DNA of 64,000 nt. It comes from an uncultured Armatimonadetes bacterium. Its GTDB lineage: Bacteria > Armatimonadota > Hebobacteria > Hebobacterales > Hebobacteraceae. Both the position numbers and the translations under genes were made by a program. Below the pieces are notes generated by a model. The model ran no database searches, was not told where the DNA came from, and saw only the letters and a program-made list of their open reading frames with translations. The number at the start of each line of letters is the position of its first letter. Within the stretch, counting starts at the first letter, position 1. The DNA lies in the NCBI GenBank assembly GCA_963716175.1, contig OY970296.1, forward strand, positions 4,000,001-4,064,000, read 5' to 3'. Positions 46,844 through 50,529 of this stretch are shown here, piece by piece.

Positions 46844-47422
46844 TCAACCCGGCGGCAAACGTCGTCGCATAGCCGGGATCAGCGCGGCCGCCGCCGCTGC
46901 CTTCACCGCGTCCACCACCACGAAGGGGAAGAGCGACTGCGCCAGCACGGCCAGCAGGCCCGCGCCAGAGCCTGTCATGGCCCGCCACACCGCGAACCAG
47001 GCGGCGCCGCAGGCGTGGATCACGATCACTCCGCACAAGCAGGCCAGAAGCACGCGCCACCCGGCCTGCGCCCTCGACCGGCCAGCGATCGAGCCGGCAA
47101 CCAGCGCGGCCAGCGGGAATCCCACCAAGTATCCGCCCGTCGGCCCCAGCAGCGCGGCCGGCCCGCCGCCGTGAGCGAAGATGGGCAGACCCGCGGCGCC
47201 GGCGGCCAGATACTCCACCTGGCTGACGAATCCCAGCCGCGCGCCCAACACCCCTCCGGCCAAGAGCACGCACAAGACCTGGCCCGTGATCGGCACCGGA
47301 GTGAACGGCACATGGAAGGAGAGGCGGGCGCCGACCGCAGTGAGGACCGCGAACAGGGTCGCGGCCGCCAGATCCACCGCCAGCCGCCGCGCTACTATGG
47401 CTCGCTCCCGCACCTGCGCCAT
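46844..47422 (-). CDS. bioY: Biotin transporter BioY
   Basis: PFTPVPITGQ, GLPIFA.GG, GPTGGYLVGF. Likely start 47422; the upstream ORF extension runs into the IS. Confidence 0.92.
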   Translation of the reverse strand: MAQVRERAIVARRLAVDLAAATLFAVLTAVGARLSFHVPFTPVPITGQVLCVLLAGGVLGARLGFVSQVEYLAAGAAGLPIFAHGGGPAALLGPTGGYLVGFPLAALVAGSIAGRSRAQAGWRVLLACLCGVIVIHACGAAWFAVWRAMTGSGAGLLAVLAQSLFPFVVVDAVKAAAAAALIPAMRRRLPPG

Positions 47423-47549
47423 CACCGTCTCCTCGATGCCGCTATGGCTTCGGCGCGTAGGGACCAGCACCTCTTGGCGCCGACCCGGACAGGAGGTCCG
47501 GACTCGCGCGGGAACACAGGGAGGCAAGAGGGAGATGCAATAACTGATG

Positions 47550-48977
47550 TCAAGGGGTAATCGTGCCTCTGGCATAGCGAGTAAGTTGGAGATGTGGCGG
47601 CTTGTTTTTCCCAGCGCTGATGGTAGAATTACGCTGGGGAGCGCGAGACCTCGACGCCGCCTTGAGTGGTCGTCCCGATTGCATCGGGGCTTGACCCGCG
47701 GCATCTCCAGTGAGGCGTCGCTCCCCCTTCGGTGTCTGGGCCATCTCTTCTCCCCGAGCGATTCCGCGCAGGGCGATCTCTTCCGACCAAGGTTGATTGA
47801 AGGTGAGCACGGCCCAGACGATCTCAGCCATCTTTCGGGCGATGGCACCTCCGGCTGCTTTCTTGGATTTGCCTCGGGCTCGCAGGCGGGCGTAGAAGTG
47901 GCGGATCGCCGGGTTGTATTGGCGGGCGGCGGCCGAGGCCACCAGCAGAGTCATCTTCAGCATGCGGTTGCCCTTGCGGGTCATGCGGAAGCGCAGCTTG
48001 GTGTCTCCGCTCTCCCAGGCAATGGGATAGAGCCCACAGTAGCCCACGAAAGTCTCTTTGTGCGGGAAGCGACGGATGTCGGCTGTCTCGGCCAGGATGG
48101 AAGCCACCGAGACCGGGCCCAGGCCCGGCACCGAAGCCAGAACCGTATCTGGGAAGAGCCGCTCCAGCTCCTGGGCGACGGCTGCGTCCATGCCGTGAAG
48201 GAAACGATTCAGTTGCAGGATGCGGACGGCCGCGTCCTGGATGGAGAGACGCGCCATCATCGGCAGTTGGCGCGCGGGGGCAGCTTTCGCCAGGGCGATC
48301 AGTTTCCGGGCGAAGGCGGCTCCGACACGCTTGCCGTCGGAGTTGCGCAACTCACTCAGGCGAGCCTCACCCCGCCGGAGCAGCTCCTGGGGCGAGGGGC
48401 AGGCGGCCAGCGCCACCAGGGTGCGGACGCTGAACTTGGCACCCAGCGTTTCCCGATAGCCGGGGAAGTGAGTGCGCAGCAGCCGGTGGAGCCGATTCTT
48501 GAGCGAGGTGCGATCCTCCACGCAGCGGCGCCGGGTGCGAGTGGCATCCTGGAGCGCTTCGAATCCCTCGGGCATGGGGGCGCGGGGCTGGGGGCGGATC
48601 TTCGCCAGGAATCGGGCGATCAGCTCGGCATCCACCCGGTCGGTCTTGGTGTCCTTGAGCTCCAGCTTGCGGAACCACTTGACCTCGCGGGGATTGAGCA
48701 CGTGCACCTGGATCGTCCGACGCGTCTCTGCCCGCAGCGCCTTCGCCGCCACCCGATGATATTCGCCGGTGGACTCCACCGCCGCCATCACCTGGGTGCC
48801 GCGACCGCACGCGCGTGCGATCACCATCACGGCCTCGCCGAGCGCGGCCGCGCCGGTCGCGTCGTTGGGGAAGGACTGCACGCCGCCGATGGGCGCTCCG
48901 CTGCCATCGCAGAAGCCGACCTCCAGGGAGCGCGACGAGACATCGATGCCCACGCACAACAACCTCGCTTCCGCCAT
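47550..48977 (-). CDS. IS110 family DEDD recombinase/transposase
   Basis: CVGIDVS, AVESTG, KTDRVDA (RuvC DEDD); VPGLG...WESG...GNRMLK, AIARK (Tnp domain). Start after GAGGAGG. Confidence 0.95.
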   Translation of the reverse strand: MAEARLLCVGIDVSSRSLEVGFCDGSGAPIGGVQSFPNDATGAAALGEAVMVIARACGRGTQVMAAVESTGEYHRVAAKALRAETRRTIQVHVLNPREVKWFRKLELKDTKTDRVDAELIARFLAKIRPQPRAPMPEGFEALQDATRTRRRCVEDRTSLKNRLHRLLRTHFPGYRETLGAKFSVRTLVALAACPSPQELLRRGEARLSELRNSDGKRVGAAFARKLIALAKAAPARQLPMMARLSIQDAAVRILQLNRFLHGMDAAVAQELERLFPDTVLASVPGLGPVSVASILAETADIRRFPHKETFVGYCGLYPIAWESGDTKLRFRMTRKGNRMLKMTLLVASAAARQYNPAIRHFYARLRARGKSKKAAGGAIARKMAEIVWAVLTFNQPWSEEIALRGIARGEEMAQTPKGERRLTGDAAGQAPMQSGRPLKAASRSRAPQRNSTISAGKNKPPHLQLTRYARGTITP

Positions 48978-49029
48978 ACACCACCTCCTCGGCAATGGAT
49001 CTGCCGCCAGCGCGGGAGCTCCTCGTCGC

Positions 49030-49222
49030 CTCCGGTCCCGCTTCGACTCCTGAATTGCGCGGTCGTGCCGCAGGTTGCAATCCAAGCTCCGGACCGGTCG
49101 CCGAGGGGTCATTCTCCTCTTCTCGGTCGCGCCGTAACTGAAATGAAGACCTCGCGCCCGACGCCCCGGCCCGGAGACTATAACCCACTCCATACTGGTG
49201 AAACCAGTACGGATATCCAAGT
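49030..49222 (-). ncRNA. Candidate IS110 bridge RNA
   Basis: Non-coding region between the junction -10 box and the recombinase. It has a 5' hairpin (TCCGTACTGG/CCAGTATGGA) followed by two large stem-internal-loop structures. Boundaries approximate. Confidence 0.65.
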
Positions 49223-49244
49223 TGCAGCATTATAGGAGTCAGCA

Positions 49245-49787
49245 ATGGCCGAGCAGCTATTCGATGGAGCGACTGCCTTCGTGATCGTGGACATGCTGAA
49301 TGACTTCGTGCGCCCGGGCGCGCCGCTGCGGGTGGAGGGAGCGGAGGCCTTGATCCCCATCATTGCCCGCGGCCGGCAGGCCGCCAGGCAAGCAGGGGCC
49401 AAGGTGGTCTACCTCTGCGACGCTCACCGGCCGGACGATCCAGAGTTCCGCGCCTGGCCACCGCACGCGGTCCGCGGCAGCCAGGGCGCGCAGGTGGTGG
49501 AGGAGCTCGCTCCCGAGGCGGAAGATACCGTCATCCCCAAACGCCGCTTCTCCGGCTTCTTCGGCACTGATCTCGATCTCAACCTGCGGGAGCGGGGGCT
49601 GCGGCGGCTGCTGATCTGCGGCATCCTCACCGACATCTGCGTCTATCACACCGCGGCCGACGCCGCCCAATTGGCCTATGAGGTGCTGGTGGCGAAGAAC
49701 GCAGTGGCGGCGGCCACGGAGGAAGACCATCAGTTTGCGCTCAAGCAGATGGCGCGGCTGCTCAAGGTGCGGCTGGCAGAGCTTTAG
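49245..49787 (+). CDS. Isochorismatase/nicotinamidase-family cysteine hydrolase
   Basis: IVDMLNDF, DAH..DDPEF..WPPH, KRRFSGF, GILTDICV. Confidence 0.9.
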   Translation: MAEQLFDGATAFVIVDMLNDFVRPGAPLRVEGAEALIPIIARGRQAARQAGAKVVYLCDAHRPDDPEFRAWPPHAVRGSQGAQVVEELAPEAEDTVIPKRRFSGFFGTDLDLNLRERGLRRLLICGILTDICVYHTAADAAQLAYEVLVAKNAVAAATEEDHQFALKQMARLLKVRLAEL

Positions 49788-50529
49788 CCACCCGCAAGGT
49801 GTGCCGCGGCCGCCTCAGTTGGGCCTGCATCTCGGACAGGGTCACGAAGCGGTAGCCGCGGCGGCGCAGGTCTTGGATGATCTGGGGCAGCGCGTCTATG
49901 GTCTGCTGCACCCCGTCGTGCATCAGGATAATCCCGCCATTGCTGACGCGAGCCAGCACGCGCCGCTCGATCCTACGCTCGCTGCGGCTCAGGTAGTCGG
50001 CGGAGTTGTCCGTCCACAGCACCGTGGTGAGCCCGAGTTCGCCGGCCGCGGTGACGCTCTCGCGATCGTAGCGCCCACCCGGGGGCCGGCAGTATTTCAT
50101 CCGCTCTCCGGTGATCGCCTGCACCGCCTGCTCGCATTCCTCCCACTCGGAGGTGACCCTCTCGCCCGTCAGCCGCGCGATGTTCACGTGGTGGAAGGTG
50201 TGGTTGCCGATCTCGTGTCCGGCCGCCCGCTCCTCCCGCACCAGCTCCGGGTGCTTCTGGGCCATCTTGCCCACCACGAAGAAAGTCGCCTTCACCTGGC
50301 AGCGATCTAACGCCGCCAGCAGCTTCGGGGTGAACTCGGGATGCGGGCCATCGTCGAAGGTGAGAGCGACGGCTTTGACCGCGGGATTGCCGCGGGTGAG
50401 CTTCAGGTAAGGACTGTGCTTGCGCGACCCGCCAGCCGCTGGGCCCGGGCCGGTCGTCTGCCCGGCCGCGCTCGCGGCGAGCAGACAGGCAGCCAACACG
50501 AACGGGAATGCAACACCGCCTCTGAGCAT
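49762..50529 (-). CDS. NodB-type polysaccharide deacetylase (CE4), exported
   Basis: LTFDDGP, HEIGNHTFHH, RPPGG, ILMHDG. Confidence 0.92.
   Translation of the reverse strand: MLRGGVAFPFVLAACLLAASAAGQTTGPGPAAGGSRKHSPYLKLTRGNPAVKAVALTFDDGPHPEFTPKLLAALDRCQVKATFFVVGKMAQKHPELVREERAAGHEIGNHTFHHVNIARLTGERVTSEWEECEQAVQAITGERMKYCRPPGGRYDRESVTAAGELGLTTVLWTDNSADYLSRSERRIERRVLARVSNGGIILMHDGVQQTIDALPQIIQDLRRRGYRFVTLSEMQAQLRRPRHTLRVAKALPAAP

Follow-up and report, generated by a model that had tools for sequence, protein, structure and literature searches.

Within the window, a 64,000-nt stretch of the genome of an uncultured Armatimonadetes bacterium (one contig, 4.56 Mb), an IS110-family insertion sequence lies on the minus strand between a BioY-family gene and an isochorismatase-family gene (Table 1). 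The element measures 1704 bp plus a repeated 4-nt core, CTCC. Its recombinase gene is preceded by a non-coding left end of 258 nt after the core and followed by a right end of 19 bp after the stop codon, the last 4 of which are the core. This layout, in which the left end is long and non-coding, the right end short and the core repeated, is that of the IS110 group, and inspection by eye revealed no apparent terminal inverted repeat at the element ends.

The recombinase matches PF01548, the DEDD RuvC-like N-terminal domain, over the whole model (E 5e-29, residues 9–172), and PF02371, the Tnp domain with the conserved serine (E 2e-20). Against NF033542 ('IS110 family RNA-guided transposase') it scores 225.3 bits, compared to a cut-off of 140, over residues 8–395. 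Among solved structures, the ISCro4 and IS621 transposases come closest, and the D..D and ESG (serine) motifs align with those of ISCro4. By these matches the protein is an IS110 RNA-guided transposase, the family named in the first-pass annotation. About 80 C-terminal residues (47553–47792, minus strand) fall outside the NF033542 match. This tail is missing from the solved relatives (328–341 aa) and is kept in all relatives of the window protein, whose lengths are 470–487 aa.

Table 1. Features of the element and its surroundings, in window coordinates
Feature	Position	Strand	Basis or remark
BioY-family host gene	46847-47422	minus	domain match; past right flank
IS110-family insertion sequence	47531-49238	minus	1708-bp block, CTCC at each end
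Right core copy, CTCC	47531-47534	minus	copy comparison and run contigs
Right-end 13 nt	47535-47547	minus	part of promoter spacer and left donor half-site (LD)
Antisense ORF, whole length, 562 codons (may be a codon-bias shadow)	47547-49235	plus	hed-like
-35 hexamer, TTGACA	47548-47553	minus	in last 23 bp of right end; overlaps recombinase stop
Recombinase stop, TGA	47550-47552	minus	ORF end; within TTGACA
IS110-family recombinase, 475 aa	47553-48977	minus	ORF and domains
Predicted bridge RNA, ~180 nt	49044-49222	minus	promoter geometry and consensus fold of alignment A1
Handshake nucleotide	49046	minus	just 3' of right donor guide
Right donor guide core, GGAG plus A	49047-49051	minus
Donor-binding stem-loop	49049-49086	minus	guide matches and alignment
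Left donor guide	49074-49081	minus	6-nt match adjoining core
Long stem with target-binding loop	49087-49176	minus	pair 90-132: GC:5 GU:1 AU:1
Right target guide (RTG), AGAGGAG	49114-49120	minus	reverse complement of core plus TCT
Left target guide (LTG), starts CAU	49135-49145	minus	hypervariable; flank matches
Single-stranded linker, 5' hairpin to long stem	49178-49184	minus	complementary to last core base plus TATAA
5' hairpin of predicted RNA	49189-49213	minus	11-bp stem in MFE and centroid structures
-10 hexamer, TATAAT; also right donor half-site (RD)	49229-49234	minus	directly after left core
Left core copy, CTCC	49235-49238	minus	homology among the four copies begins here
Isochorismatase-family host gene	49245-49787	plus	ORF and domain match

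Copies of the element and an unoccupied site

With the element and its flanks as query, four copies were found in the genome. The block common to them, by direct comparison, is exactly 47531–49238, and the flanks are unrelated past both CTCCs. Relative to the window copy (L001), one copy (L002) differs by a single base and another (L003) by two, while the fourth (L004) has two mismatches and has also lost 2 bp near element position 967. The window recombinase is 100% identical in sequence to the proteins at two other loci; the L002 copy scores slightly lower. The deletion in L004 (G000:C1:782976-784682) breaks the recombinase into two frames, making it a decayed copy. In contigs from public runs (X2 and X3), the match to the window ends at 47531 and at 49238/49239, and past these points the contigs continue into DNA that flanks the L004 and L003 copies. 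The ends proposed in the first-pass annotation are thus exact, and comparison of the other copies, which it had suggested as a check, gives the same boundaries in all four. Its description of the element as intact holds for the window copy, with an open recombinase frame and both domains present.

A contig from another study's metagenome (X4), from a related strain that is ~2–3% divergent, joins 47528 to 49234 with three ambiguous letters. The contig represents the unoccupied site in that strain and provides moderate support for recent insertion of the element. One caveat here is that 1705 bases are skipped rather than 1704, and that the shorter side has only 30 letters. The X4 site is one base short of the precise excision product. 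As read in X4, the right flank starts TCT, which fits the right target guide, and the window copy has an extra C (47527–47534). The one-base discrepancy may reflect a strain polymorphism or an imprecise event.

A promoter divided between the element ends

The minus strand carries TTGACA at the right end, CTCC at both ends and TATAAT directly after the left core, each part of the layout lying where the first-pass annotation had placed it, including the recombinase stop inside the −35 hexamer. When the ends were joined through one core by script, the predicted TTGACA-N17-TATAAT was reproduced, matching the consensus at 12 of 12 positions. Promoter reconstitution across the joined ends, a mark of the IS110 family, is therefore found in silico. 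In this genome (66% G+C), there are 1039 occurrences of TTGACA and 153 of TATAAT, counting both strands. The two hexamers at one fixed spacing are expected at 1.9e-9 per position, and the chance is about 2e-7 when ~90 placements around the junction are allowed. Perfect TTGACA-N16-18-TATAAT sites number 12 in the genome compared to about 0.05 expected, so the organism appears to use the sigma-70 consensus.

Searches for relatives covered 16 genomes of the order, 401 of the phylum, and metagenomes. Only two genomes, G007 and G008, contained relatives; matches at 22–30% identity, mostly from Treponema, that appeared in a scan of genome contigs were set aside. The metagenome scan gave 42 loci, of which 7 were used (L030–L036, 67–91% protein identity) and 35, at ≤30%, were dropped. 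Pattern scans of viral contigs with the right-end and left-end motifs yielded no matches for either.

The split promoter is present in every element with both ends, that is, the window element and five relatives at 67–91% protein identity (L030, L032, L033, L035 and L036); the junctions read TTGACA-N17-TATAAT in four and TTGACA-N17-TATAGT in two. Loci with a right end only (L034, L023 and L026) have TTGACA-N13-core in each case, and both loci with a left end only (L031 and L024) have the core followed by TATAAT or TATAGT. The left end of L023 is degenerate. Overall, the −10 hexamer is TATAAT or TATAGT in all left ends seen (the window and seven relatives). The spacer sequences differ, with five variants, while the hexamers and the 17-nt spacing are kept. 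Conservation of hexamers and spacing in every relative that could be examined supports the first-pass reading of these ends as two halves of a putative promoter, and we infer promoter activity only for the joined form.

Part of this conservation could stem from the roles of the same letters as stop codon and donor half-site. A stronger version of this idea holds that the hexamers are conserved for those roles alone and that their resemblance to a promoter is incidental. As that version would have it, the stop codon lies within the −35 hexamer in all eight elements with a right end (the window and 7/7 relatives), a linker in the predicted RNA is complementary to the −10 hexamer and shows a compensatory change, and the donor guide matches the spacer adjoining the core. 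However, the stop codon sets only three of the six bases of the −35 hexamer. Sites that are read by guides could drift along with the guides, yet these hexamers stay within one base of the sigma-70 consensus at a spacing of 17, and their joint chance of ~2e-9 per position also speaks against coincidence; we regard an incidental resemblance as very unlikely.

Other IS families are known to carry −35 boxes that face outward from their ends, and the two halves might similarly act while the element is integrated, with a −35 hexamer in the flank serving the left-end −10, or with the outward right-end −35 combining with a −10 in the flank to switch on a neighbouring gene. The integrated copies argue strongly against this. 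In all four, the flanks supply at most 3/6 matches to a −35 hexamer and at most 2/6 to a −10 hexamer at spacings of 16–18, and a promoter scan of the integrated element (47300–49500) found no promoter-like sites, such that hybrid promoters seem extremely improbable. It is also conceivable that the junction arises where two copies lie head to tail as a tandem dimer, and not in a free circle. The promoter would then work by the same logic, and a circle junction and a tandem junction are indistinguishable from sequence alone. However, the junction 24-mer, reading from right end to left end, is absent from the single-contig assembly, and circles are a documented intermediate of IS110 and IS1111 members (PMC11187229), so tandem dimers carry little weight with us. 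No circle joint was seen in four runs of assembled contigs, which drop rare forms.

The reading we prefer, with a probability of roughly 0.85, is that of an intact, recently active IS110 element whose split promoter becomes a circle promoter, drives a bridge RNA and leads to guided insertion. We infer circle formation, promoter activity, RNA ends and RNA-guided insertion as follows. In the integrated element the promoter is split, with the −35 hexamer at the right end and the −10 hexamer after the left core. Low levels of RNA and recombinase from integrated copies would, by analogy with the family, allow a circle to be excised; for IS621, integrated copies are reported to be weakly expressed and to excise inefficiently (PMC13626964). 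In the circle, the right end would meet the left end through one core to create TTGACA-N17-TATAAT, and this promoter would read into the 258-nt left end and then the recombinase gene. A bridge RNA would fold from the first ~180 nt of the transcript; its target loop would pair with the flanks of the insertion site and its donor loop with the joined ends. Finally, the complex of recombinase and RNA would carry the circle into another translation start region.

The spacer, core and −10 hexamer double as donor half-sites. Promoter and recombination site therefore share DNA, and the complex, once bound, would lie over the promoter that drives it. A circle-junction promoter drives the bridge RNA in IS621 and its relatives (Durrant et al., PMC11208160), and junction promoters have been described for IS110/IS1111 elements (Siddiquee et al. 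2024, PMC11187229). The mechanism sketched in the first-pass annotation agrees with the relevant passages of both papers. The promoter mechanism is already established for the IS110 family, and the window element adds a member. As in ISEc11/ISEc21 (IS1111/IS110 Pjunc), abutted circle ends create a promoter, here at the level of sequence only; in the window element, in contrast, the −35 hexamer shares bases with the stop codon, and neither hexamer departs from the consensus.

Predicted bridge RNA and its guides

To obtain a consensus structure, we aligned seven left ends (A1) and folded the alignment. The RNA would start ~7 nt past the −10 hexamer, near 49222, as estimated from promoter geometry. 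The consensus fold comprises a 5' hairpin, a long stem and a second stem-loop, with the long stem and the second stem-loop each ending in a small hairpin between two single-stranded segments. Guides were assigned by the strand rules that Durrant et al. (PMC11208160) give for their elements, in which the left guide equals the top strand and the right guide is the reverse complement of the core plus the right half-site.

The left target guide, on the 5' side of the first small hairpin, starts with CAU throughout the seven-sequence alignment. Compared with the left flank of the same element, it gives identical runs of 11 nt in L033, 8 in L032, 7 in L035 and 6 in L036, such runs being seen in four of the five relatives with an assessable left flank; the L030 guide matches its flank at 8/10 positions, and the left flank of L031 is too short to assess. 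For the window guide, matches are 9/10 with the flank of L002, 7/10 with that of L003, and 6/10 with both its own flank (L001) and that of L004. Non-cognate guide–flank pairs mostly give runs of 3–5, with 9/60 reaching at least 6. The register of the match relative to the core shifts by 1–2 nt between sites.

Covariation is also seen for the right target guide, which occupies the 3' side of that hairpin; A instead of G in this guide goes with T instead of C at position +2 of the right flank. Its contiguous pairing beyond the core averages 2.4 for cognate pairs versus 1.5 for non-cognate pairs. The handshake nucleotide can pair with flank position −1 at 8/10 sites (U-A, G-C, C-G or G-T), and the handshake guides of IS621 are described as behaving in the same way (PMC11208158). 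In L035, the left-end core is CTCT and the donor guide is AGAG in place of GGAG, suggesting that the true crossover region is ≤3 nt. One caveat is that the seven aligned left ends represent two or three clades, and hence the covariation rests on few independent changes. Together, the fold and the guide comparisons support the view that the left end encodes a bridge-RNA-like structure, with guides that match and covary with flanks and ends.

Two further observations concern parts of this RNA that mirror the element ends. Pair 9-57, between the single-stranded linker and its complement, is A-U in five sequences and G-C in two (L035 and L036), a compensatory change, with a wobble in G008. The linker letters (49178–49184) also mirror part of the right end, and the G008 wobble fits either reading. 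The linker might serve as an additional donor guide, or might allow a fold-back in transcripts that read through. The right-end spacer (47541–47547, minus strand) and the left target guide (49135–49141, minus strand) have a 7-nt run in common in the window element and in L033, and spacer and guide of L036 have a different 6-nt run in common. Of 5000 shuffles, 33, 40 and 69 gave such runs for the window, L033 and L036, respectively, and no shared run was found in L030, L032 or L035.

The system most readily compared is that of IS621 and the IS110 bridge recombinases (Durrant et al. 2024; Hiraizumi et al. 2024). Likenesses include a recombinase with DEDD and Tnp domains, a long non-coding left end, a promoter rebuilt across the core in the circle (here in silico), and a predicted RNA in which a 5' hairpin is accompanied by two stem-loops carrying the guides. 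Left and right guides follow the strand rules of those elements, and in both cases the handshake nucleotide can pair with the non-cognate DNA. The differences are also clear. Protein similarity is distant (E 6e-16, the top-scoring aligned segment falling in the Tnp domain), and the window recombinase has ~80 extra C-terminal residues. The ends of the window element have 4 nt (CTCC) in common, compared to the CT dinucleotide of IS621, and its left target guide is 10–11 nt long and barely covers the core. The window RNA is matched by no Rfam model (47000–49800, E up to 1). Finally, the target here is a translation start region, while that of IS621 is a REP element.

Insertion at translation start regions

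On the plus strand, the left CTCC of the window element is the GGAG Shine–Dalgarno of the isochorismatase-family gene, which retains GGAG-N6-ATG but is severed from its former upstream DNA. To see how general this arrangement is, we compared the left flanks that could be assessed. At 8/9, the opposite strand reads GGAG, 6–9 nt, and the ATG of a long ORF pointing outward from the element; on the element strand, the same sites read CAT, 6–9 nt, CTCC and then T. The sole exception is L036. The ORFs at these sites include the isochorismatase-family gene, two N6_N4 DNA methylase genes and a YlbF-family gene. The two insertions at N6_N4 DNA methylase gene starts are independent, one in the window genome (L002:194-1495) and one on a metagenome contig that carries a relative at 68% identity (L035:3-1235). 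As insertion repeats GGAG, the host gene retains a ribosome-binding site. In the genome as a whole, only 89/949 AGAGGAG sites precede an ATG that opens at least 80 codons; core and right guide alone do not, therefore, explain the preference for starts.

IS900, an IS110-family element of Mycobacterium avium subsp. paratuberculosis, has the target motif CATGNNNNNNTCTCCTT, which is reported to be the inverse of a ribosome-binding site and start codon (PMC8141618). The same source describes a whole-length antisense ORF, hed, in IS900. The window element resembles IS900 in belonging to the IS110 family and in inserting at an inverted ribosome-binding site and start codon in one orientation. The hosts, however, belong to different phyla. 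The antisense ORF of the window element is open in four of six elements (the window, L030, L032 and L033) and closed in L035 and L036. Codon bias alone produces such an antisense shadow over 475 codons in 70/655 gene-like ORFs (~11%), and the ORF may be a shadow of this kind, its standing as a hed-like gene being unproven.

We tentatively suggest, while considering it rather unlikely, that the element belongs to an IS900-like clade in a distant phylum, with a bridge RNA hard-wired to translation start regions. In such a clade, the shared core would be the complement of the Shine–Dalgarno GGAG, the right target guide would read the purine-rich stretch upstream of GGAG, and the left target guide, starting with CAU, would read the start codon. 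Since the junction promoter is made from donor half-sites and the spacer holds a guide copy in 3/6 elements, the recombinase–RNA complex could also sit on the promoter that drives it and regulate that promoter. A literature search returned no paper joining IS900 with bridge RNA. The main text of Durrant et al. does not contain 'Shine' or 'start codon', and its supplementary target-motif tables may list such targets.

This locus illustrates that the ends, core, donor site, split promoter and guide RNA of such an element can be read from one genome and a few metagenome relatives, and it supplies a naturally occurring bridge system in which the shared core is 4 nt and the left target guide is long. 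What it adds to the established promoter mechanism is the target logic, in which guides and core would read a Shine–Dalgarno and a start codon. If the IS900-like reading is true, this logic ties a target rule known for decades to the bridge-RNA model, and the IS900 rule gains an RNA-guided explanation.
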